Source: Acidimicrobiia bacterium (GTDB taxonomy: Bacteria > Actinomycetota > Acidimicrobiia > Spongiisociales > ZC4RG35). Taken from it: a stretch of 64,000 nt of DNA. The notes beneath the pieces were generated by a model. The model was given only the letters and a program-made list of their open reading frames with translations, ran no database searches and was not told where the DNA came from. The stretch's first letter is position 1. Every line of letters begins with the position of its first letter. The translations under genes and the position numbers were made by a program. Shown here piece by piece: positions 26,073 through 61,875 of this stretch. Where the stretch lies: positions 3,223,913 to 3,287,912 of the forward strand of contig OZ242000.1 of assembly GCA_965204615.1 (NCBI GenBank). Direction: 5' to 3'.

Positions 26073-29000
26073 CTATGGTGAGGCGTCGCCGGGTTCGGTG
26101 ACGTCGATCACGATCACCGATATTTTGCGCTTTTCTTCGGGTTCGAGTTGGCTTTCGAGGCGTTGTCGTAATTCCTGGGGAGTGGTCGGTCGCCGGCCGG
26201 AGGGCGGGGGTGTGGTCCGATCGGCGCCGAACCACAGGACGAGGAAGACCCCGTATCCGGAGGTGGAGGGATCGGTTGTGTATCTGTTGATCAGTTGGTT
26301 GCGAAGGGCGCTCCACAGATTGCGGTGAGAGTTCTTCTTGATCTCGACCGGCACGTTGAATCCTTTGAAGGTCGCTCGGATGTCGGATCTCTTTGCTCCG
26401 GCATATCGGCCCTCCGGCGATACATCGATCCTGGAGGGAAGTCGGTGATTCAGGGCTTGGAGCAGGGCATCGCGGCAGGAGTCCTCCGGGTTGCTGTTGG
26501 TGGGGCGTCCGTAGGAGTCTTCGTTCCAGAATTGACGCCATAGGTTGGCGCTGTCTCCGCGAATGTGTTCGGAGATCGTTTCAAACTGATCGCAGAGCAG
26601 GGCGGCCAGGTCGGCCGGGTTCGCCGGTTCCTGATTGGTGAGGGTCCGTTGGACTTCTTCAACTCCCGGATGGTTGAAAGAGGCTTCGCGGTACACAGCC
26701 CTTTGGGCTTCCTGTGCCCACAGCAATTGATCTCGCCACCGTACGAGTTTGGAGTCTTCCACCAGATCCGCCAGTTCTCGGTGGGTTTCGGCATCCTCCA
26801 TGGAGCCCAGTTGCCTGATGATGTCACTTATGAGTTCGGAGGTGCCGATTTCGAGCGTGACCAGTCCCTCCGGCACCCGGGGCCGGTAGGAGGGCGCCAA
26901 AATGCGGACCAGGTTGGCCAGCATCTCTGCGTTCCACTCGCCGGATACCATCCGGCGGCGACCCGCATACCTGGGAGAGTTGCTCAGGAACTCGGCCAGA
27001 TGTCGGACGCGTCTCTCGTCGCCGCCAAGTACGTAATCCTTCAGTTGTTGCATGCGCGGTTCGGTGGACAACATGGCAGCCACTGTCATCCATCTGACCC
27101 GCTGACCGACATCGAGACTCTTCAAAGCCAGCCTTTCCTTGGCCATGACCAGGAGCGCCGCGTCATCGGGGCGGCTGAGCGCTTTCCCCAGAAGTTGGTC
27201 GAATTGTCGGGTTTGCTTCCTGGGTATCCGGGTGGGAAAGGCGTCAAGCAGCCTCAGTCTGGCCTCGTCCACCAGGCTGTCGTGGCCTGGAAGAAGGTCC
27301 AGTTCCTCGACCGTGGGTAGGTGTTCCTTACCGTTGCGCAGGTCCGCCACCGCGCATCGGTGCACAGTATCGAGCACCAGGTCCGGGTTCTGTCGGAACC
27401 ACATGTCACGGCACTCCCGAGTTTCCTCGCGGCCCAGGGGAAAGCAGTAATACAGTGTCAGGGCCTGTCGCATCCGGGCGGCCTCCAGTGCCAGGGCAGG
27501 TTCCGGGCCGGTCGCCAGAAAATGCATGCTTGCCTGAACGGGGTAGGCAAGGTATGGCATGCGTGATTGGGAGTGGAGCGAGAAGGTCTCATCCACTCCG
27601 GGAAGGTCATGGCGCCACAAAGCGCCCCGGAGGGCGGCCATGACGGCATCGGCAAGTTGTGGGTCTCCTCCGATGAAATCTCGGACCCGCTCGTAGGGCG
27701 TCCCCTGTTCAATGTTTCGAAACTGTCCGAAGTAAGCCAGTGCCAGGGTGTGAAGATTGGCGGGGGAGAAGGTGTTGTTCCGCAGTTCCGTTTCCTGCGA
27801 ACGAAGGAGACCGGCCCACTCCTCTCGCTGGCGTCTTTCTTCCATCCGTTGCTGCTCTCTGCGTTGGTCCTCCCGTTGTCGCCAATCCTCCTCGGGTGAT
27901 GGAGCCAAGGCGGTCTGACGCTGCCGGTGAAGCTCGTCGAGTTCCCCTGCCAGCCGCGCATGTCCGCGCAGTCGCTCGCGCATCATTTCAAGGGTCAGTC
28001 CTTCGCTGATGGAGGAGTATTCCAACGCGTGGTAGGCGTCTCTCAGGAGTATCCGTGAGGATGCCGGCCGTGTATCGGCCAGATTGACTGCCTGCTCAAG
28101 ATACCAGAGTCCCAGGTCGGCGGGAGGCCTGCTGTGGTACAGCACCTTTGCGAAAGATAGGGGATAGGACGCCGCGTCGCCGTCGGGATTGTCCGGTTCG
28201 AGCCACTTGAGGATGATCTCCTTTTGAAGTTGGGGTCTTGCTTCCAACCATGCTCGTATTTCGTCGGCATCTTCTTTGTCCGCGGGTCTCCACCTGATCC
28301 TGGAGTGATAAGTGGCGGTCAGCCAGTTGTAGAGACGGTCTGTTTCGATTTCATCTCCTATCGCATTCAAGGCGCGTGCCAGGAGTCGAGGCGGCAGTTC
28401 CTCGAATCTTGAGTCTTCCAGAGATCGAGCGATGTCGGCGGCGTCTTCGCACAGCGCATCAAGGAGTTCCGCCAACTGTTGGCCGGATGACTTGTCGAGG
28501 AGGGTGTGGTTCCAGAAGATCCAGAAACTGCCGAAAAGGTTCTTTCTGTTGCGGGGCGCCACATACCTCCAGACCCGGTGGGGAGAAACCTGGTCAGGAT
28601 AAAGGAATCTCAGCAGTGTTCCCCGCATCTGGTCACCGGGGTCGGCGAGCTCTGAGGCTTGGCTCTTTTCCAGTAGCCCTATGAGCTTCTGTGCCCGTGT
28701 TTCGGTGGGCGGGGCGATGTTGAGATAGGCGTCGAGAGCATCCTTTCTCACCCACGGGGACCTCCCCGCGTCGTCAACGATGGCATGGAGGCTCGGGACC
28801 AGGGTTGCCAGCGATTCCAGATCCCGGTCCGCGTGTTCCAGTATTCCGGCCAGGAACTTGACCATCCGGTCGGCCGCAGGGGTGGGTTCTCGACCATTGA
28901 GCAGGTCATCGATGATGGGGATCATGTCCCGGGAGACCAGGGAGCGGAAGGTCCAGGCCGCGTATTCGTTATGGACGGTTCGGGCGTCTGTCGGGCTGGG

Positions 29001-30224
29001 ACCTGACAGAGGCTCCTTTGTCGCGAATGAGGCCAAGGACCGGAGTAGGCGTGTCTTGTCGGTTTTGGTTATTCCGCTGATGTCCCCGTACAGCCCGACA
29101 CCCACCGGATCGGCGTCGATGAGCAGGCCACGGGCCTCCCGGGAATGTGTCGCCAGCCAAGCGGACAGACCGCGCAGCGGGGTAACCACCCGTCCGTCGC
29201 CGGGACTGCTCATCAGGGCCGTCACTCTTCGGGCCGGGAGTCCTTCTTCGATGAGCTCGGCCAGGTAGCGGCCCCCCAGGAACTCGGCCACCTGCCGGTG
29301 GACGGGACGGAATAACCCCTCTCCCGCGGCGGCGAACAGTTTGGTGGCCAATGCTCTCCTGAGACGCTCGGGTGCGATCTTCGTGCCCTCGCTGACCTGA
29401 TCCGAATCCATGAAGGACGGGCTGGTTCCTCGGAGGAACGAATATGCTTCGATGTCGGCCAGCAAAGCCAGCGCACACAGATAGCCGATGGCCGTCCTTA
29501 CCTCGGTGGGCGGCGCCGGGGCGGCAATCACATGCTCCGAATTCTGTTCGGCCGCCAACTCTCGGCAGGCCATTTCGAACGTTTCGCGCCTGCTTCGGGG
29601 CCAGCCTTCGCCTTTCCTGGTCGCGTCCACGACCAACTGCAGGGTCAGAGGATTCTTCAGGAGGGGCCAGATTCCCCGATGCCGCGACTCTTCCAGGAAC
29701 TCATCCACGTCCCCCGAGAGCGCTGATCTCAGAATCTCTTTCACCGACATCTCATCGAGGGGTTGCAAGTGGACGACGGTGACCTCTCCGTCCGCGGGGG
29801 CCACCAGAGCCAGTTTCTCACGGTCGTTGCTACCGAGCCAGTCCGCTTCCCGACAGGAGATGCGGAACCCCGGAGGGCGGAGCCTGTCCAGCCGTCGCCG
29901 GATTCTGTCCAAGGGAACGCGGGAGTCTCTCGCTCCCGCCCGCACCTCGTCCAGGCCGTCGATGAAGAGAATCTTTTCCCGCCACTCCGGATGCGAGTCG
30001 ATGTCAAAGTATATGAAATCGCGGGCGGGTATGTATGCGGCGCCGCTTCCCAGCGCTTGGCGCTCCTTCATGAACTCGGTTGTTTTGCCGGCGCCGGGAT
30101 CGCCGAGCAAAACCAGCGCGGGCCGTGACCGGAACGCACTGAACGGCATGCTTTCTCCACGGAAGGTTTCACCTCGACCGTCTAGGTGGACCTCGGTGCA
30201 AACTCGTCCAACCAAGGTGCTCAT
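26073..30224 (-). CDS. Large NACHT-like STAND NTPase (1383 aa) with long helical C-terminal region and putative C-terminal PD-(D/E)xK nuclease-like domain
   Basis: Walker A GDPGAGKT and Walker B ILFIDGLDEV (the hhhhDGhDE NACHT signature). Downstream RISCRE (sensor-1-like) and NPLTLQLV (GxP-like). About 900 aa of helical, charge-rich repeats. C-terminal ...SDIRATFKGFNVPVEIKK... fits a D...ExK motif. Start overlaps the upstream stop (ATGA). Confidence 0.7.
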   Translation of the reverse strand: MSTLVGRVCTEVHLDGRGETFRGESMPFSAFRSRPALVLLGDPGAGKTTEFMKERQALGSGAAYIPARDFIYFDIDSHPEWREKILFIDGLDEVRAGARDSRVPLDRIRRRLDRLRPPGFRISCREADWLGSNDREKLALVAPADGEVTVVHLQPLDEMSVKEILRSALSGDVDEFLEESRHRGIWPLLKNPLTLQLVVDATRKGEGWPRSRRETFEMACRELAAEQNSEHVIAAPAPPTEVRTAIGYLCALALLADIEAYSFLRGTSPSFMDSDQVSEGTKIAPERLRRALATKLFAAAGEGLFRPVHRQVAEFLGGRYLAELIEEGLPARRVTALMSSPGDGRVVTPLRGLSAWLATHSREARGLLIDADPVGVGLYGDISGITKTDKTRLLRSLASFATKEPLSGPSPTDARTVHNEYAAWTFRSLVSRDMIPIIDDLLNGREPTPAADRMVKFLAGILEHADRDLESLATLVPSLHAIVDDAGRSPWVRKDALDAYLNIAPPTETRAQKLIGLLEKSQASELADPGDQMRGTLLRFLYPDQVSPHRVWRYVAPRNRKNLFGSFWIFWNHTLLDKSSGQQLAELLDALCEDAADIARSLEDSRFEELPPRLLARALNAIGDEIETDRLYNWLTATYHSRIRWRPADKEDADEIRAWLEARPQLQKEIILKWLEPDNPDGDAASYPLSFAKVLYHSRPPADLGLWYLEQAVNLADTRPASSRILLRDAYHALEYSSISEGLTLEMMRERLRGHARLAGELDELHRQRQTALAPSPEEDWRQREDQRREQQRMEERRQREEWAGLLRSQETELRNNTFSPANLHTLALAYFGQFRNIEQGTPYERVRDFIGGDPQLADAVMAALRGALWRHDLPGVDETFSLHSQSRMPYLAYPVQASMHFLATGPEPALALEAARMRQALTLYYCFPLGREETRECRDMWFRQNPDLVLDTVHRCAVADLRNGKEHLPTVEELDLLPGHDSLVDEARLRLLDAFPTRIPRKQTRQFDQLLGKALSRPDDAALLVMAKERLALKSLDVGQRVRWMTVAAMLSTEPRMQQLKDYVLGGDERRVRHLAEFLSNSPRYAGRRRMVSGEWNAEMLANLVRILAPSYRPRVPEGLVTLEIGTSELISDIIRQLGSMEDAETHRELADLVEDSKLVRWRDQLLWAQEAQRAVYREASFNHPGVEEVQRTLTNQEPANPADLAALLCDQFETISEHIRGDSANLWRQFWNEDSYGRPTNSNPEDSCRDALLQALNHRLPSRIDVSPEGRYAGAKRSDIRATFKGFNVPVEIKKNSHRNLWSALRNQLINRYTTDPSTSGYGVFLVLWFGADRTTPPPSGRRPTTPQELRQRLESQLEPEEKRKISVIVIDVTEPGDASP

Positions 30225-31483
30225 GCCGGTTCCAGCCAGTAATCAGCAGGTGCTGCCAGGAACTCGTGGAGAGGGCGGCCACCGGATCCGACAACCACAG
30301 ACCCAAGAGGCCGGAAACGCCCCTCGATTTCGGCCAATCCCGAGAGCGCCAAGGGCCCCTTTCCGGTCTTCACCTCAATCCCCACCACGCGTGGTCCTCT
30401 TTGCAGGACGAAATCCACTTCATGACTCCCGGACCTCCAGTAATAGACCGAAGTGGACGGCCCGGCCGTATTGACCAGGTGAGCCCCTACGGCGCTCTCG
30501 ACCAGACGCCCCCAATACCTCCGGTCCGCACGCGCCTCTTCGAAGCCGTACCCCCACGCGGCAGTCATCAGAGCCGTGTTGAGCACGTTCAGCTTCGGTG
30601 TGGAAGCCTTGGCGGAAATCCGGCGAGTGGTGTATTTTGAGAGACCCGCCAACAGCCCCGCATCCGAGAGCAGCTTCAGATAGCGGGTAAGGGTCGTGGT
30701 GTTTCCGGCATCCTGAAGTTGACCCAGCATTTTGTTGTACGACAGCACCTGTCCCGAGTACAGACACCCTATGTCGAACAGGCGCTTCAAGAGCGACGGC
30801 TTGTGCACTCTGGTCATCGCCAGCACGTCACGCTCGATGATGGGTTCCACCAGAGCCCCCTGCACATAAGTCATCCACCTCTCCGGGTCGTGTGCCCGCG
30901 ATGCTGCCCCCGGGTAACCGCCGAAGTAGATGTACCGGTCCAAATCGAACCCGAAGGCCTCGGCCATTTCCAGATACGACCAATGTGTGAAACGGATCGG
31001 CTCGAACCGTCCCGCCAGGCTCTCATTCAAGCCCGCCTGCATCAACAGAGGAGCGGAACCCAGGACCACCACATGGAGGGGGCAACCGCTGGTCCGGTCG
31101 GCGTCCCATAGTCCCTTCACGACATCAGACCACCCTTCGATCCTCTGTATCTCGTCCAGGACCAGGACCAAACCGTCTTCCGACTGCCATGCCCGGTGAC
31201 GAGAGTCCTGCCACACACCCACCAGCCAGGACGCGTCTTTCACCACCGGCAACGAAGCGACAGCGTCGCTGCCCGTGGGCGGCCACGGTCTCGCCCTCTC
31301 CACTACGGGCTCATCCACCGCCACATATAGACTCGGACGGCCAACAGAGGACAAAGCCTGGCGAGCCGCAACAGTCTTGCCGGTCTGGCGCGGGCCGAAG
31401 ATAGCCAACAGCCGCTCGGGCGGCTCGGCCAGCCTCTCAATCAGAGTCCCTACCTGTGAACGGCGGAAATCACTCATCCCCAC
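30221..31483 (-). CDS. AAA+ ATPase, COG1373-like (AAA_14 plus DUF4143-like C-terminal domain)
   Basis: Walker A GPRQTGKT and Walker B LVLDEIQ. C-terminal SGSHEVDFVL...GIEVKTGK resembles the DUF4143 / PD-(D/E)xK-like module. Translationally coupled to the NACHT gene. Confidence 0.7.
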   Translation of the reverse strand: MGMSDFRRSQVGTLIERLAEPPERLLAIFGPRQTGKTVAARQALSSVGRPSLYVAVDEPVVERARPWPPTGSDAVASLPVVKDASWLVGVWQDSRHRAWQSEDGLVLVLDEIQRIEGWSDVVKGLWDADRTSGCPLHVVVLGSAPLLMQAGLNESLAGRFEPIRFTHWSYLEMAEAFGFDLDRYIYFGGYPGAASRAHDPERWMTYVQGALVEPIIERDVLAMTRVHKPSLLKRLFDIGCLYSGQVLSYNKMLGQLQDAGNTTTLTRYLKLLSDAGLLAGLSKYTTRRISAKASTPKLNVLNTALMTAAWGYGFEEARADRRYWGRLVESAVGAHLVNTAGPSTSVYYWRSGSHEVDFVLQRGPRVVGIEVKTGKGPLALSGLAEIEGRFRPLGSVVVGSGGRPLHEFLAAPADYWLEPA

Positions 31484-32593: not shown

Positions 32594-33214
32594 TTAGTTG
32601 ACGACAATGCCGCCAACTAGTGATACTGTTCCGCGATGTCCGCTCGCGCCGCTCCGCCAAGAGGCGGTGTGGGTCTTACAACGGAAGTTTGTATGGCGCA
32701 TCGCATCGGGAAGAGCCCCTCCCGACCCCGGGAAACCCCGGGCGCCTATGTTTCGAGCGGCGTTCACATCCCGGTCCAACTCCAATCCGCAACGCTGACA
32801 GGAAAACACCCTGAGGCGTAGAGGCATTTCTGTCTGTGCCCGCAGATGGAGCAGTCGGTGGATGTGGACTTTGGGTTGGCCCTCTCATACCGGACACCAG
32901 CTTTCCAGGCTTTGTATTCCAGTATCTTGTCGAGGGCCGACCACCACTGGTCGGATAGCTTTCTTGAGTATCTCTTTGCCCTGGGACTGGGACAACCCAT
33001 CCGGGAACTTCTCCCTCTCAGGGTTGTGATGCTCTTTCCACCACGCGTAAGTGCCCTTCCAGGACTCCAGGGCGGCGTTGTACAACTCCGAGCACATCCC
33101 GAATATCACGGTCAGACGGCGATGCTGCGACGCCGAACACTTGGCCGGGAGGCGGAAGGTCTGCACCATCTGGGACAAATAGAGAAGATGCGAGGGAGGT
33201 GTGACAGGCATCAA
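32594..33214 (-). pseudogene. tnpB: Decayed IS605/IS1341-type tnpB (OrfB) remnant in three frame-disrupted pieces
   Basis: Fragments carry TnpB-like features: ...RRLTVIFGMCSELYNAALESWKGTY...; ...KAWKAGVRYERANPKSTSTDCSICGH...; and the C-terminal zinc ribbon CQRCGLELDRDVNAARNI. Total length is far shorter than an intact ~400-aa TnpB. Confidence 0.5.
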
Positions 33215-33318
33215 CCAACTGCAGGTAACCTGACGGGAAAGATCCGGCTCCCATCGGTGATCTCCGTAACGCCGAGGGGCACCCTGCGTCTTGCAACATA
33301 GAGCGGGTTGGAAGGAAC

Positions 33319-34188
33319 ATGGACAGACCGGACTTTTCCGGACGAGTTCTCCGAGCTATAGCCAAAGAATATCGGGACGAGATGGGTCCCGCTCGTGCCG
33401 AGCAATTGGCTTCGCGGGCGATAGCCCGGGCGGGGGAACGCTCCCGAAGGTATCAGCGGATAGGAGTGCTGGCGTCCGGTGCGGCCCTGGCCGCCTCCCT
33501 GGTGGTGGCGGGAGTGGCGGTGTTGACCGGCGGTTCGGATTCGCTGGCTCCGCCGGACCCCGAGTCCACCCCGGTGGCGTCCGGTTCGGTCTCAGGCGAT
33601 GGGGTGAACGTTCCGACCCTGACCAGGGAGGGGCTGATGGAGGCTCTCGATCTGATCGACCAGCAGAGGGAGTTGGAAGCCGCCGAGATGGTGGTGGCGG
33701 CTCTCTCCTACATCGAAGAGTCGGTTGCGAGCGCCGACGTGGTCCCGTCGGAAGCCATCATCGAGGCATTGTCGCCACCCGATCCACCCCCTGAGGGAGC
33801 GCAGACCCCCACCACCTCCCCCTCGGCATCGCAAAGCGCCTCACCTGAGGAGGACATATACGCCTACGGTCCTCAGCCGTCGGGACAGGAGGAGGCTTCC
33901 AACGGCCCGGTGTACGAGACGCCCGAGTCCCACCCCGGGGAGGAGGTGGCCGAGGCCACGCTCCGGGATGTGGCGGCGGATCCCGCGGCCATCGGAGAAC
34001 TCGGGCAGATGCTGAAGCTCGAGGTGGAGGAATTGCTGGGTGTGCTCGATGTCTCCGATTCGGATCCGGACGCCATCAACGACGCGGTCGAGGAAGTGGA
34101 GAAGGCCGTGGCGCCGATCCTGGAATATCATTCCCAGGACGAACCGACGATTCTCATCCCCACCGGCGGTGATGAAGAACAAGAATGA
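33319..34188 (+). CDS. Single-pass membrane protein with acidic, Pro/Glu-rich extracytoplasmic region (possible anti-sigma-like partner)
   Basis: TM helix IGVLASGAALAASLVVAGVAVL. Low-complexity acidic C-terminus. Located directly upstream of the ECF sigma gene. Confidence 0.4.
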   Translation: MDRPDFSGRVLRAIAKEYRDEMGPARAEQLASRAIARAGERSRRYQRIGVLASGAALAASLVVAGVAVLTGGSDSLAPPDPESTPVASGSVSGDGVNVPTLTREGLMEALDLIDQQRELEAAEMVVAALSYIEESVASADVVPSEAIIEALSPPDPPPEGAQTPTTSPSASQSASPEEDIYAYGPQPSGQEEASNGPVYETPESHPGEEVAEATLRDVAADPAAIGELGQMLKLEVEELLGVLDVSDSDPDAINDAVEEVEKAVAPILEYHSQDEPTILIPTGGDEEQE

Positions 34189-34294
34189 CACGGATCCCGG
34201 CTGACCGGCGGGAACGGGATGGGTCTCTGAACAGACCTCCCCTCTTCCAAATTACCCGATCCTGAGCACCCAAAGCTATACCGTGGGCTGAATT

Positions 34295-35272
34295 GTGTCT
34301 GCGGAATCATCCCAGTGGCCTCCCGCGCTTGCCGAGGCGACCGCGGCGCGCGATGGCGACCAAGCCGCGCTTGGCTCCATCCTGACCAAGGGGCTGCCTC
34401 GGCTGGTGGCCTTCTTCCGGGGCCAGGGCCTCTCCCTGGCGGACGCCGAGGATGTGGCGAGCGACGTCTGCGAGTCCCTGGTGCGCTCCATCGGCCGCCT
34501 GAGGGCGCCCCAGGCCTTCGAGGCGTGGTTCTGGAGAATCGCCCGCTCCAAGTTCCACGACCACCTGCGACGGCGCCATCGGCCCCTCCCGGCGCCCGAT
34601 TTGGAGACCAGCAGGATGCAGCCCGAGGAGCATGCCCTGGACCGGGAGGACTTCCGAACGGTGCGGCTCGCATTCGCGCGCCTCGGTGCACGGGACCGGG
34701 AGCTGCTGTGGCTGCGCGAGGTGGAAGGTCTCTCCCATGCGGAGATCGGAGGCAGGGTATTCAAGAGGGAGGGCTCGGTGAGGGTGGCGATGCACCGGGC
34801 GCGGCGGCGGTTCGAGCAACTGTTGGAGGAGGAACAGCACAGGTCCCGCTCCCCGGAGTCCTACCAGGCGCCGGTGGTGTTGTTCATGGCCGCCGGCGAC
34901 TCCGACCGTTCCCAGATGGCCGCCGCCCTGCTGCGCACGATGGCCGCCGGTCCGGTGAGGGTGTACAGCGGCGGGTCGTCGCCCGCCTCGCGGGTGGACC
35001 CGAAGGCGGTGGCGGTCCTCTCGGAACGGGGAATAGACATCGCCGAGGCGCAACCCGCCCGGTTGAGCGCGGCGATGATCGAGGCGGCGGAGGTGGTGGT
35101 GGACCTCGGCGAGGAGAGTTCTCCGGTCACGGTGGGCAAGCGTCTCGTGCGGTGGCAGGTGGAGTCGCCGCGGGGAAAGGGCATCGAGGAAATGAGAAGA
35201 GCGCGGGACGAGATCGAGCGCCAGGTGTGGGAATTAATGATCACCTTGAACATCGAACCGCGAAAATTATGA
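34295..35272 (+). CDS. ECF sigma-70 factor fused to a C-terminal LMW-PTP/ArsC-fold domain lacking the catalytic cysteines
   Basis: The sigma-2 region (DAEDVASDVCESLVRSIGRL...FEAWFWRIARSKFHDHLRR) and sigma-4 region (ELLWLREVEGLSHAEIGGRVFKREGSVRVAMHRARRRF) are both present. The C-terminus aligns to ArsC/LMW-PTP (VLFMAAGDSDRSQMAAALL...VRVYSGGSSPA...GIDIAEAQPARL...). Its CX5R P-loop reads AAGDSDR. Confidence 0.6.
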   Translation: MSAESSQWPPALAEATAARDGDQAALGSILTKGLPRLVAFFRGQGLSLADAEDVASDVCESLVRSIGRLRAPQAFEAWFWRIARSKFHDHLRRRHRPLPAPDLETSRMQPEEHALDREDFRTVRLAFARLGARDRELLWLREVEGLSHAEIGGRVFKREGSVRVAMHRARRRFEQLLEEEQHRSRSPESYQAPVVLFMAAGDSDRSQMAAALLRTMAAGPVRVYSGGSSPASRVDPKAVAVLSERGIDIAEAQPARLSAAMIEAAEVVVDLGEESSPVTVGKRLVRWQVESPRGKGIEEMRRARDEIERQVWELMITLNIEPRKL

Positions 35273-35371
35273 AATTGGGGGTTACCGATATAGGGTTTTT
35301 GTGGCATAGTGAAAAAGGCAGGCCTGTTTCTTCGATGAGAAACGAAGCGAAAGAGGGATAGAGACCCGGCA

Positions 35372-36367
35372 GTGGTATCGCGATCGACCCTGAAAAAAAG
35401 TCAGGACACCAGAACGGAACGGCGGGTGCGCATAACCGATCAGATAACGGATGAGCGCGGCCGGCTGACTTCCGACCTGGTTGCCCAGTACCTGTCGGCC
35501 ATCAGTGAAACCGACCTGTTGGACGCCCAGCAGGAGGTGGAGTTGGCCCAGTTGATGGAGGCGGGTCGCCAGGCGGAGACGAAGCTGGAGACGGGCGAGT
35601 ACGAGACCTCCTCGGAAAAGAGACGCCTCGACCGGCAGAAGCGCCGCGGGGCGGCGGCGAAGAACCAGTTCGTGCAAGCCAACCTGCGGCTGGTGGTGCA
35701 CAATGCCCGTCGCTATCAGGGAGTGAGGGGAATCGACTTCCTGGACCTGGTGCAGGAAGGCAACCTGGGTCTGATCCGGGCGGTCGAGAAATTCGACTGG
35801 CGCAAAGGATTCAAATTCTCCACCTACGCAACTTGGTGGATCAAGCAGGCCATAACCCGGGCCATTGCCGACAAGTCCCGTACCGTGAGGATCCCCGCCC
35901 ACCTTCACGACACCTTGGCCAAGGTCCGACTGGCCCAGGGAATCCTGAAGGGAAAGCTCGGGCGTCTGCCCAATCCCGAGGAGATATCCCGGGAGACCGG
36001 CATCCGCATAGACCATGTGGAGCAGGCCCTGGTGCTGTCCGACACCGTCTCCCTGGAGGAGCCGGTGGGAGAGGACGGAGCACAGCGGGGCGACTTCATA
36101 GAGGACGGCGACGCCGATGATCCCGAGGCGATCGCCGAGGCCACCAGCGTGGCGATCGCCATGCGCAACTCCATCAAGAAGCTTCCCGATCGGGAGCGAA
36201 AGATCATGGAACTGCGGTACGGATTGGAGGATGGGATTCCCAAGGGACTGGATGAGATCGGAAGCCACTTCCAACTCACCCGGGAGCGGATCCGCCAGCT
36301 GGAGAAGTTGGCGCTGTGCCGGTTGCGACATCCCTCCTATGGGATACGCCAGCAGGATCTCATCTAG
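35372..36367 (+). CDS. Sigma-70 family RNA polymerase sigma factor (group 1/2, RpoD/SigB-like, lacking region 1.1)
   Basis: Region 2 [19 protein letters not shown], region 3 [13 protein letters not shown], region 4 [15 protein letters not shown]...[16 protein letters not shown]. Confidence 0.8.
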
Positions 36368-59688: not shown

Positions 59689-61875
59689 TCAGCTTGGTAG
59701 CCAACCCAAGAGGGCGATTCGGCCGTATTCAGGCTGGGCAACAACACTCCATTGGTTACCGCCGTCGCTATCCGTGATCCATAGCGCGGATACAGAGCGC
59801 GGTAGGGGTCCGGCTTCGTCGAATCTGACGGGGGACAGAGTCGAGTAGGCGATACGTTTGCCGTCGGGTGACCAACGAAAGTCTCCTACCTCGTCGACCA
59901 GTTTCCTCTTGTTCTTTCCATCAGCGTCCGCAATCCATAGTTGTGTAGAAACGGGGAAATATGGATCGGTCCATAACTCTCTGGAAATGTCGGATACTTC
60001 TTCAAAGATATCGGAGGGTAGGACGGGACTGTTGGGGTCTTCTTCTTCCAGAATGTAGGCAAAGGACTGATTGTCCGGCGACCATCGGACATTCAGAATC
60101 CGACCGTATCTCGGGTCTCCCGTGTAGAGATCCCGCTGTCTTATCGTGTCCCCGGTGAGCGTGTTGAACACGAACCCTTCACGGTTGTCAGAAACCAGAT
60201 GTGCACTATCCGGTGCCCAGTCAAGGTAGTTGCACTTGCTGATGCCTAGGTTCATGATCGTCTCACCGTTGGCGGCGTCCGCCACGATGAACTGGGTTCC
60301 GATACCATAACCCCTAACGTAGGCGAATCGGCTACCGTCGGGCGACCACCGTAGCTTGGCCGAGCCTGGAAGGTTGCCCAAGCCTGCCGTCAGCAACTTG
60401 ACCCTGTTGCTACCGTCGATGTCCATTATCCAGAGATCCTGGTGAACACCGTTGGGGTTCTCCGCTATCCAGGACACCCTCCGGCCATCCGGCGTGAACT
60501 CCACGTATCGGGCATTGGATTCATCAACATCGATCGTGACCTGGCCACCACTCTCAAGGTCCTCGACAACAGTATGGACATAAACCCGTTCTCCGCCGAC
60601 CTCATCGAAGACACTGTAGAGAGCGAGCCTCCCATCAGGAGAGAACCGCCAGAGAAGACCGATGGACCGTTTGTCCTGCCCATCACTTCTCTCGATCCAG
60701 TTCGAACCTCCGGCGCCTCCAGCAGTGTTGTACACCAGGTATCTCGAGTCGGGCGACCACCGGAAATTGAAGGACCATCGGCCCAGGGAACGGACCTCGC
60801 GAACGTTTTGGCCATCCGTGCCCATCACATAGGCCTTGTCCCTTGCCCCGTAGGCGACCCACCTGCCGTCCGGTGAGAATATCGGATGAGCACCGCCATG
60901 ACTGCTGTACGATCCTATGGCCTCCCTGCCGCCTTGCAGCCCGGCCATCCATATCTGGTTCCCGAACCCATAGCTGTCCACGTAGTCGGGGTCTGCCGTG
61001 GAGTAGGCAAGGCGGTAGCCGTCGGCCGGCGACGTGGCGCCGGGAAGCGGAACGAGCTTCAGAGCACGAGCCAGGAACGTCGCCATCTGGGCCCGGGTCA
61101 CCGGCCGGTCGGGACAGTAGCGCCCCTGACCGCATCCGGCGGTGATCCCTGCCGCGGCGAGCTTGTCGATGTTCTCCGCGTGCGGGCTGTCGGCAGTGTC
61201 GGAGAACCGACCGGGCGCCCCGCCGGGCAACTCGAACGCCCGGGCCAAGAAACTTGCCATCTGAGCGCGGGTCACCGACTGGTCCGGGCAGTAACGCGGA
61301 GGGTCCTCAGAGCACCCTCTCGTTACTTCGAGATCGGCCAGCCGGTTCGTGTAAGGCGCCCACCATCGAACGGGACTCACATCGGTGAAGCTCGACACCC
61401 CGGACGGATCAGGGTCCGCCCCGTCAACGGCTCGCACCAGCCACACGGCCATCACCCATCTCAGCAGCGGATCGTCAGGACAGAACAAACCCCCGTCACA
61501 GTCGGTGCCGGCGAGGATGCCCCGACCATCAGAAGCCAGGGCAGCGATCGACCTGGCATGAACCCCTCCCTCAACATCGGGATAGCCACCCGCCTGGGCC
61601 GCCGCGGGCACACCGGACGCCAGCAATACCATCACCACCGCGACCACGGACCCGATCAGCCGGCCACCCGCTTTCGGTCGATCACCCCTCCGCCCGAGCG
61701 GGAATAGACAGTCAGGCGCCGTATGTTCTCCGTAAGTGATCCGACCAGGCATGGGCATCCTCACTTGTTGTAACTCTCGTAAACGGCCCGCGTCCAAGCC
61801 GTTGAAGCAATCCCGTAGGTTCTCGTCGGTCCTTGGATTGGGGGTGAGGCCTTGCTGGGATCGGTGAGTTACCAA
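59689..61875 (-). CDS. Secreted SLH-domain protein with PD40/TolB-like beta-propeller repeats
   Basis: The signal peptide starts near MPMPGRITY...VVAVVMVLLASGVPAAAQA, so the true start is probably downstream of 61875. SLH motifs (PDVEGGVHARSIAALASDG...; FTDVSPVRWWAPYTNRLADLEVTRG...). Repeated W/F-SPDG units. Confidence 0.6.
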   Translation of the reverse strand: MVTHRSQQGLTPNPRTDENLRDCFNGLDAGRLRELQQVRMPMPGRITYGEHTAPDCLFPLGRRGDRPKAGGRLIGSVVAVVMVLLASGVPAAAQAGGYPDVEGGVHARSIAALASDGRGILAGTDCDGGLFCPDDPLLRWVMAVWLVRAVDGADPDPSGVSSFTDVSPVRWWAPYTNRLADLEVTRGCSEDPPRYCPDQSVTRAQMASFLARAFELPGGAPGRFSDTADSPHAENIDKLAAAGITAGCGQGRYCPDRPVTRAQMATFLARALKLVPLPGATSPADGYRLAYSTADPDYVDSYGFGNQIWMAGLQGGREAIGSYSSHGGAHPIFSPDGRWVAYGARDKAYVMGTDGQNVREVRSLGRWSFNFRWSPDSRYLVYNTAGGAGGSNWIERSDGQDKRSIGLLWRFSPDGRLALYSVFDEVGGERVYVHTVVEDLESGGQVTIDVDESNARYVEFTPDGRRVSWIAENPNGVHQDLWIMDIDGSNRVKLLTAGLGNLPGSAKLRWSPDGSRFAYVRGYGIGTQFIVADAANGETIMNLGISKCNYLDWAPDSAHLVSDNREGFVFNTLTGDTIRQRDLYTGDPRYGRILNVRWSPDNQSFAYILEEEDPNSPVLPSDIFEEVSDISRELWTDPYFPVSTQLWIADADGKNKRKLVDEVGDFRWSPDGKRIAYSTLSPVRFDEAGPLPRSVSALWITDSDGGNQWSVVAQPEYGRIALLGWLPS

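Follow-up and report, generated by a model that had tools for sequence, protein, structure and literature searches.

Extracytoplasmic function (ECF) sigma factors can carry C-terminal extensions, and those described in the main texts of two ECF surveys are SnoaL-like, TPR, Cys-rich, zinc finger and DUF1835 domains and transmembrane helices (PMC7826278, PMC8999054). Gene sequestration is given as a documented origin of such extensions in the main text of PMC7671368, and in the ECF56 system SigG1-RsfG an extension and an anti-sigma factor act on one and the same ECF (PMC7730460). Here we describe an ECF sigma factor from an Acidimicrobiia bacterium whose C-terminal half has the fold of low-molecular-weight protein tyrosine phosphatases and arsenate reductases (LMW-PTP/ArsC; Pfam LMWPc) and has lost the residues of catalysis. 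The gene lies in a stretch of 64,000 nucleotides of contig OZ242000.1, the whole of which is called the window below. An earlier note on this DNA, made from the sequence alone, had placed the fusion outside the commonly described ECF extensions. That view agrees with the main texts of the surveys PMC7826278, PMC7671368 and PMC8999054 (the ECF classification, an evolutionary survey and a review of non-canonical ECFs), in which an LMW-PTP/ArsC extension is absent; there is a small chance that the supplementary group descriptions of the classification list it. A full-text search found no literature combining ECF sigma factors with arsenate reductase, LMWPc or DUF5667. With moderate confidence we propose that the gene belongs to an autoregulated operon of a membrane protein and an ECF sigma factor, and that this sigma factor has acquired a non-catalytic pseudo-enzyme module.

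A sigma factor with an LMW-PTP/ArsC-fold extension

The fusion gene and its parts are given below by their positions in the window, together with dN/dS (the ratio of nonsynonymous to synonymous substitution rates) and AlphaFold pLDDT (per-residue model confidence).

34295..35272, + strand: ECF sigma-LMWPc fusion gene, 325 amino acids (aa) from a GTG start, with Pfam, NCBIfam and PDB matches
34394..34582, + strand: sigma-70 region 2, residues 34-96; PF04542 (Sigma70_r2), 42.3 bits; dN/dS 0.07; pLDDT ~95
34661..34810, + strand: sigma-70 region 4, residues 123-172; PF08281 (Sigma70_r4_2), 37.7 bits; dN/dS 0.12; pLDDT 92-96
34841..34873, + strand: inter-domain linker, residues 183-193; dN/dS ~0.5; entropy 1.56 bits; 0/11 residues invariant; pLDDT <50 at residues 185-188/190 in both models
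34877..35239, + strand: LMW-PTP/ArsC-fold domain, catalytically dead as judged from its residues, 195-315; PF01451 and PDB matches; Foldseek TM-score 0.88; dN/dS 0.20
34889..34912, + strand: degenerate P-loop AAGDSDRS, residues 199-206, in place of CxxNxxRS (24-sequence alignment)
35108..35137, + strand: former redox loop GEESSPVTVG, residues 272-281, in place of GCGDxCP (alignments with 3t38 and with the relatives P0101, P0102 and P0112)
35162..35170, + strand: former general-acid loop E-S-P, residues 290-292, in place of x-D-P; S291 invariant

By every criterion that can be tested on its sequence, the fusion protein belongs among the ECF sigma factors. Its Sigma70_r2, Sigma70_r4_2 and LMWPc matches all exceed the Pfam gathering scores, the NCBIfam sigma70-ECF family TIGR02937 is matched at 75 bits against a cut-off of 42.9, and no Pfam match to a Sigma70_r3 or region 1 domain was found in the protein. 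The two sigma regions, whose presence bears out the claim of the earlier note that this open reading frame (ORF) encodes a complete ECF sigma factor, are joined by a short linker with about 22 residues (97-118) disordered in the AlphaFold model. The best NCBIfam sigma subfamily is ShbA, which at 79.5 bits falls far under its cut-off of 209. The closest relatives of the sigma core are ordinary ECFs of 180-220 aa that are 45-58% identical to it over the sigma part and, taken with its strong conservation, they make the core look functional.

Homologues start at an ATG one codon upstream (GAAATGGTG), and at 34290..34297 the window reads GAATTGTG. Because this ATG has been lost in the window, the adjacent GTG is used, giving a protein of 325 instead of 326 aa, a length also found in several members of the closest cluster at 90% identity. 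The only Cys that is invariant in the family is residue 59 (nucleotides 34469..34471), which lies in sigma region 2 in a D-x-C-E context; it is present in some stand-alone ECF relatives and missing in others.

The C-terminal half has the LMW-PTP/ArsC fold that the earlier note had assigned to it. LMWPc is the sole C-terminal domain match in Pfam; it extends over the whole profile (positions 1-144 of 144) and scores 51.7 bits where the cut-off is 23.2. The closest solved structures are the Corynebacterium glutamicum arsenate reductases 3t38 (E 2e-18) and 3rh0 (E 3e-17), and Foldseek superimposes the predicted domain on Staphylococcus aureus pI258 ArsC (1ljl) with a TM-score of 0.88 and a root-mean-square deviation of 1.6 Å over 129 columns, the range for pI258 and C. 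glutamicum ArsC being 0.84-0.88. Glutaredoxin- and thioredoxin-type arsenate reductase families gave only sub-threshold NCBIfam matches. Membership of the Spx/ArsC family was ruled out: PF03960 (thioredoxin-fold ArsC/Spx) has no match in the fusion protein at E up to 1, and the domain has the unrelated LMW-PTP fold, the name ‘ArsC’ being shared by coincidence.

Alignments show four features of catalysis to be missing: the domain lacks the Cys nucleophile, the Asp of the general acid and both redox Cys residues, and the family as a whole does not conserve the Arg of CX5R. In the P-loop, A199-A-G-D-S-D-R205-S206 stands in place of the C-V-H-N-A-G-R-S of intact relatives. In an alignment of 24 sequences, made up of the window protein and 23 clusters of homologues formed at 90% identity, the nucleophile position 199 is Glu in 13, Ala in 7 (the window among them), Gln in 3 and Ser in 1, and Cys in 0/24. 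Position 205, that of the CX5R Arg, is Cys in 15, Arg in 5, Ser in 2, His in 1 and Asn in 1; with Arg in only 5/24, the Arg205 of the window is a minority state. Both D202 and S206 are invariant in this alignment. Ser291-Pro292 is invariant family-wide where relatives have Asp at the 291 position, and the redox pair (Cys82/Cys89 of pI258, in GCGDxCP) is gone, the window reading GEESSPV and the family having no conserved Cys. The C-terminal domain is free of Cys altogether in 8/24 members, the window included. These comparisons, with relatives and within the family, uphold the earlier reading of AAGDSDR as a broken P-loop and of the redox Cys residues as absent. With the catalytic and redox residues lost, the names arsenate reductase and phosphatase do not suit the protein. 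A HAD-like DxD reading of D202-x-D204 was also considered and ruled out: residue 204 is Asp in 17, His in 4 and Cys in 3, and three residues lie between strand beta1 and D202.

A single clade of fusions

A search of 5.8 billion proteins found full-length homologues in 23 clusters at 65-96% identity, of which 22 have lengths of 326-328 aa and the remaining one, P0021, is shortened at its N-terminus to 300 aa. Below these clusters there is a sharp drop to stand-alone ECFs (180-220 aa) and stand-alone LMWPc proteins. At the genome level the fusion is present in 16 species, all of them represented by metagenome-assembled genomes (MAGs; one-genome-per-species GTDB contigs), several on megabase-scale contigs. 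Most of the 16 MAGs are labelled Acidimicrobiia, one is an uncultured Acidimicrobiaceae and four are labelled only ‘bacterium’; the isolate names RHO, SB0665, Plut and OM1 resemble what we take to be names of sponge or coral metagenome bins. These 16 related genomes and the window make up the 17 loci, or 17 genomic sequences, used below.

Gene calls are identical across independent NCBI, ENA and JGI assemblies. A sequencing or assembly artefact is ruled out by the recurrence of the same losses in 23 clusters, in 16 genomes, in independent assemblies and on megabase-scale contigs, which also disposes of the error masking an intact CX5R motif that the earlier note had allowed for. Public records file the proteins under one of two names, ‘sigma-70 family RNA polymerase sigma factor’ and ‘arsenate reductase’, and public assemblies contain no sequence identical to the window protein.

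When 1.84 billion representatives were searched exhaustively with a HMMER profile, the clade came out as one representative and two fragments. Among the best 150 matches from this search (at least 90 bits) there was no second independent sigma-LMWPc fusion, the reach of the search being from ~90 bits upward, below which any weaker independent fusions would score. The remaining long matches with two aligned stretches are tandem ArsC proteins or proteins combining an ArsR-type helix-turn-helix (HTH), Phosphatase-like_N and LMWPc, and the P-loop is intact in 7/7 of the long matches read at sequence level. Among the stand-alone proteins closest to the dead domain are tandem proteins of ~285 aa (P0095 and P0098), each composed of a thioredoxin-type ArsC unit (CVHNAGRS, GCGDxCP) and a second unit that lacks the GCGDxCP pair and resembles mycothiol-type ArsC2 (CxKNGGKS).

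Conservation and predicted structure

Estimated by the Nei-Gojobori method from the 17 genomic sequences, dN/dS is 0.07 in sigma-2, 0.12 in sigma-4, 0.20 in the dead domain (125 codons, dS ~0.95) and ~0.5 in the 11-residue inter-domain linker. By these values the dead domain is under clear purifying selection that is looser than that on the sigma core. The extension, ~135 aa in length, is kept in all members, and there are no truncated variants other than fragments at contig ends.

Within the dead domain, sequence entropy is lowest in helix alpha1 (0.28 bits), strand beta3 (0.35 bits) and the long C-terminal helix alpha5 (0.63 bits). The tail residues Pro322 and Arg323 are invariant, and alpha1, alpha5 and the C-terminal tail are conserved nearly as well as sigma-4. 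The former catalytic loops have entropies of 1.30 bits (ex-P-loop), 0.98 bits (ex-DP loop) and 1.73 bits (ex-redox loop, the most variable segment of the domain), as compared with 1.56 bits for the linker. Since the former catalytic loops vary most and the helices least, selection preserves the fold and its helical surfaces and not the old pocket, and it is improbable that the former active site still serves to bind a ligand. The idea in the earlier note that the domain senses a ligand is weakened because it is these loops that vary most.

AlphaFold models of the fusion protein reached a mean pLDDT of 73.7 and a pTM (global model confidence) of 0.42 with the 24 fused sequences, and 83.7 and 0.47 with 74 sequences, stand-alone ECFs and LMWPc proteins having been added. 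In the 74-sequence run the per-domain pLDDT was ~95 for sigma-2, 92-96 for sigma-4, ~80-90 for LMWPc and <50 for both linkers. No confident mutual arrangement of the three domains was obtained in the two runs (alignment depths 24 and 74, with ~23 fused sequences). The suggestion in the earlier note that the extension acts as an intramolecular anti-sigma domain is neither favoured nor disfavoured by these models, in which the domains are well folded, the linkers are disordered and the pTM is only 0.42-0.47.

The upstream membrane protein and an ECF-type promoter

The features upstream of the fusion gene are as follows.

33266..33293, + strand: ECF-type promoter with -35 GTAAC at 33266-33270, a 16-nt spacer and -10 CGTCTTG at 33287-33293; probable promoter of an autoregulated operon
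33310..33317, + strand: Shine-Dalgarno-like GGAAGGAA, separated by one base from the ATG of the membrane-protein gene; conserved in 17 aligned upstream regions
33319..34188, + strand: single-pass membrane protein of 289 aa, its gene directly preceding that of the fusion in each of the 16 genomes; putative anti-sigma factor or partner
34252..34282, + strand: element TTACCC-N19-TATACC, its end 12 nt from the start codon of the sigma gene; conserved where the intergenic region was aligned

The acidic single-pass membrane protein that the earlier note had pointed to as a possible partner is real, with one hydrophobic segment at residues ~48-72. This transmembrane (TM) helix follows a basic head (residues 1-47, isoelectric point (pI) 11.1) and precedes an ectodomain (residues 73-289) in which 23% of residues are Asp or Glu (D+E). 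The Arg-rich stretch before the TM helix suggests, by the positive-inside rule, an N-in topology with a cytoplasmic head. The head is the best-conserved part of the protein, with a mean identity of 74% as against 49% in the ectodomain, which is acidic (~20-25% D+E) and fast-evolving throughout the fusion clade. One locus (L013, 8999..9961) departs from this: the partner ORF continues as far as the sigma start, and its ectodomain, acidic in the other 16, is basic there, with a pI of 9.0 and 10% D+E. This points to a frameshift, whether real or introduced by the assembly.

We found that nearly all of the stand-alone ECF relatives (loci L017-L051) also have a single-pass membrane protein encoded directly upstream, in neighbourhoods that are otherwise unrelated. 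The upstream proteins of the fusion and stand-alone loci align in hhalign with 93.8% probability (E 1.7e-7) over 117 columns that take in the TM helix, the cytoplasmic head before it and the first helix of the ectodomain after it. By this homology the membrane protein appears to be an ancestral partner of the sigma factor, and its standing as the likely partner, raised in the earlier note, is strengthened both by the alignment and by a promoter that is invariant in 17/17 loci. The stand-alone upstream proteins give a borderline match to DUF5667. No Pfam match, anti-sigma domains (class I ASD/zf-HC2, class II CnrY-like, RskA and others) included, was found for the membrane protein of the window at E up to 1, an NCBIfam scan of the window protein was also negative, a PDB search with a profile of 28 N-termini returned no anti-sigma chain, and a large-database search with the profile of the N-terminal head gave only three matches.

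The sequence GTAAC-N16-CGTCTTG upstream of the membrane-protein gene follows the classical pattern of ECF promoters, with an AAC motif at -35 and a CGT motif at -10. In 17/17 loci the two blocks are invariant, with a spacer that is free to vary, and the extended motif GTAAC-N17-GTCTT occurs once per locus in the 17 loci, always before the membrane-protein gene. The stand-alone relatives have TGTAAC-N17-GACTT at the equivalent place before theirs, so that the -10 element differs by clade (GTCTT in fusion loci versus GACTT in stand-alone loci). Most likely, as judged from these motifs, the fusion sigma factor recognises the promoter of its own operon. An exact GTAAC-N16-CGTC occurs twice in the window against 0.27 expected. 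The second site (61770..61794, + strand) lacks the extended -10, reading CGTCCA instead of CGTCTTG, and falls within an ORF of 728 aa on the minus strand, in its 5' part; it is therefore probably a chance match.

A terminator check at the locus found no convincing terminator between the membrane-protein gene and the sigma gene, and we infer that the two form an operon with the sigma gene second. The element TTACCC-N19-TATACC before the sigma gene may be an internal sigma-70-like promoter producing a near-leaderless mRNA, although it falls below the consensus threshold of the promoter scan. Since the gene layout and the promoter type are shared with stand-alone relatives that are not syntenic, the autoregulated operon of a membrane protein followed by an ECF appears to be ancestral, and its conservation across these relatives argues for a single addition of the LMWPc domain.

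Genomic neighbourhood

The gene order in the 16 genomes is a quinone-oxidoreductase-like gene (minus strand), the membrane-protein gene, the fusion sigma gene, a group-1/2 sigma gene and a LivHMGF-like transporter. The sigma gene that follows the fusion is positioned in the window as follows.

35372..36367, + strand: group-1/2 sigma factor gene, 331 aa, with regions 1.2, 2, 3 and 4 (Pfam, NCBIfam); adjacent in all 16 genomes

At 89-98% identity in the 16 genomes this gene is the most conserved of the neighbours compared. It is preceded at 35282..35310 by a conserved GGGGGTTACCG-N17-CATAGT, an element akin to the TTACCC...TATACC found upstream of the ECF gene. A ShbA-like arrangement, in which the ECF would control the downstream gene as that of a principal sigma factor, was ruled out, there being no GTAAC-N17-GTCTT before 35372..36367.

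In the window, a degraded TnpB/Cas12f-like gene (32594..33214, minus strand) separates the quinone-oxidoreductase-like gene from the promoter of the operon. It is seen as two adjacent ORFs in different frames that each match half of the Cas12f1-like TNB domain (PF07282); the promoter at 33266 is intact. The intergenic region between the quinone-oxidoreductase-like and membrane-protein genes measures ~750 bp in the window versus ~100 bp in 15/16 relatives, the contig of the sixteenth (L002) being without the quinone-oxidoreductase-like gene. Further upstream lies an ORF of 1383 aa (26073..31483, minus strand) that has no Pfam match and overlaps by 4 nt the gene for a 420-aa AAA_14/DUF4143 ATPase. 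In the 16 related genomes, some of which have a serpin gene on that side, tblastn found no match to either gene in the 10 kb around the fusion, and the pair looks like an island specific to the window.

Discussion

In the picture that we favour, a working ECF sigma factor would drive its own two-gene operon from GTAAC-N16-CGTCTTG, and in one clade the sigma factor would have gained its C-terminal extension by capture of an arsC-like gene and retained it since. The membrane protein would hold the sigma factor inactive through its cytoplasmic head, in the manner of an anti-sigma factor. The tethered dead domain would add a second layer of control as a non-catalytic module for protein interaction or conformational change, by analogy with the extensions of ECF41, ECF42 and ECF56. 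The role of the dead domain, argued from this analogy, is the weakest link of the whole picture.

Several observations weigh against it. Autoregulation is deduced from motif conservation only, and docking of the extension onto the sigma core within the molecule is not supported by the models, which with only ~23 fused sequences do not speak against it either. No anti-sigma domain in Pfam or among solved structures is detectably similar to the membrane protein, its cytoplasmic head of ~45 residues is basic and atypical of a class I anti-sigma domain, and its gene lies upstream, not downstream, of the sigma gene. Moreover, the fusion loci are syntenic over >7 kb, so that conservation of neighbours within the clade is weak evidence by itself, and the argument for a partner rests for that reason on the non-syntenic stand-alone relatives.

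A rather unlikely alternative, in our judgement, is that the extension is a passive relic, a downstream LMWPc gene that was sequestered and fused by chance, decayed, and persists as a harmless or stabilising appendage without a regulatory role. Sequestration is a documented route to ECF extensions in the main text of PMC7671368, the catalytic loops drift freely, with position 205 moving among the single-nucleotide neighbours Cys, Arg, Ser, His and Asn, the linker is unconstrained and no docking is predicted, and the ancestral partner and promoter could supply all the regulation alone. However, a useless appendage of 135 aa would be expected to have been lost or truncated in some lineages, and this one has a dN/dS of 0.20 (over the 125 codons, at dS ~0.95), a constant length in 16 species and truncations only at contig ends. 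Its alpha1, alpha5 and tail, with P322 and R323 invariant, are conserved near the level of sigma-4.

A variant of the favoured picture concerns what the membrane protein grips. The basic 47-aa head might bind the mildly acidic dead domain rather than, or besides, the sigma-2/sigma-4 core, making the domain a membrane ‘handle’ and a new class of ECF regulatory module, a proposal that we would call unlikely. If it were true, the sigma factor would be held at the membrane with its surfaces for binding RNA polymerase and DNA free, an anti-sigma mode not described before, and its appearance would coincide with the loss of the DUF5667 sensory signature from the partner.

It seems to us quite improbable that residual chemistry survives, the old site sensing through a redox- or metal-reactive thiol at position 205 together with Asp202 and the Asp, His or Cys at 204. 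Cys205 is indeed found in 15/24 members, Cys-Cys at 204-205 in three and His at 204 or 205 in others, and D202 is invariant. Against this, the window protein and seven others have no Cys in the domain, positions 199, 204 and 205 are variable and the surrounding loops are the least conserved of the domain, and no member retains the canonical nucleophile, the general acid or the redox pair. A PhyR-like sigma mimic, with a sigma-like half titrating the partner without binding RNA polymerase and a C-terminal domain as the gate, is extremely improbable: the order of a sigma-like and a globular alpha/beta domain beside a conserved partner gene is superficially PhyR-like, but the sigma core has a dN/dS of 0.07-0.12 and ordinary stand-alone ECFs as its nearest relatives, a cognate ECF-type promoter with a clade-specific -10 (GTCTT versus GACTT) is conserved before the operon, and the fusion protein has no Pfam match to PhyR_sigma-like or Response_reg.

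Known ECF extensions have small-molecule-binding or repeat folds (SnoaL, TPR, Cys-rich). Here an enzyme fold has instead been recruited, stripped of its chemistry and kept under selection, which in the favoured picture makes this a clean bacterial case of a pseudo-enzyme taken into transcription control on top of an ancestral operon with a membrane partner. The fused and stand-alone relatives, which share a promoter type and a partner family, offer a natural comparison with and without the domain, and hence of what an extension adds to an ECF switch. The family is also an annotation trap, its proteins being filed as sigma factors or as arsenate reductases. Its reach is limited to 16 species of uncultured Acidimicrobiia, with no genetic system.

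An ECF with a C-terminal extension is a known kind of protein, and it is the type of extension that is new here relative to the main texts of the ECF surveys. Like the ECFs with SnoaL-like (ECF41 and ECF56), TPR (ECF42) and Cys-rich (ECF238) extensions, the fusion protein consists of a sigma-2/sigma-4 core followed by a globular domain, here of ~135 aa. The closest system in logic is ECF56 SigG1-RsfG, in which a fused extension also stands alongside a partner protein and the two are co-transcribed (PMC7730460). Unlike in ECF41, ECF42, ECF56 and ECF238, the extension here is an LMW-PTP/ArsC pseudo-enzyme, the partner is a membrane protein encoded upstream and without a recognisable anti-sigma domain, and no intramolecular contacts are predicted.

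The dead domain shares its fold end to end with pI258 ArsC and with C. glutamicum ArsC1' (3t38) and ArsC2 (3rh0). It is ~30-40% identical to actinobacterial ArsC and keeps the SQMA helix start, the GGS loop, ERGID and the EIERRV helix. Unlike thioredoxin- and mycothiol-coupled ArsC, it is joined to a sigma factor and has no Cys nucleophile, no general-acid Asp and no redox Cys pair, and its family does not keep the Arg. Among multi-domain proteins, those nearest to the C-terminal half are actinobacterial proteins composed of ArsR-HTH, Phosphatase-like_N and LMWPc (P0221, P0231, P0252 and P0253 among them), which likewise carry LMWPc C-terminal to a DNA-binding regulator. In contrast to the fusion sigma factor, P0221 and P0231 keep intact CVxNAGRS, GCGDxCP and DP motifs, and their DNA-binding part is an ArsR-type repressor.

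The stand-alone Acidimicrobiia ECFs (L017-L051) resemble the fusion clade in a sigma core that is 45-58% identical, in a homologous upstream membrane protein and in the same type of promoter, and differ from it in having no C-terminal domain and a different neighbourhood. The ectodomain of their partner keeps the PGDxLYxLDRxYE/DUF5667 signature, whereas that of the fusion clade has an acidic, fast-evolving region instead.

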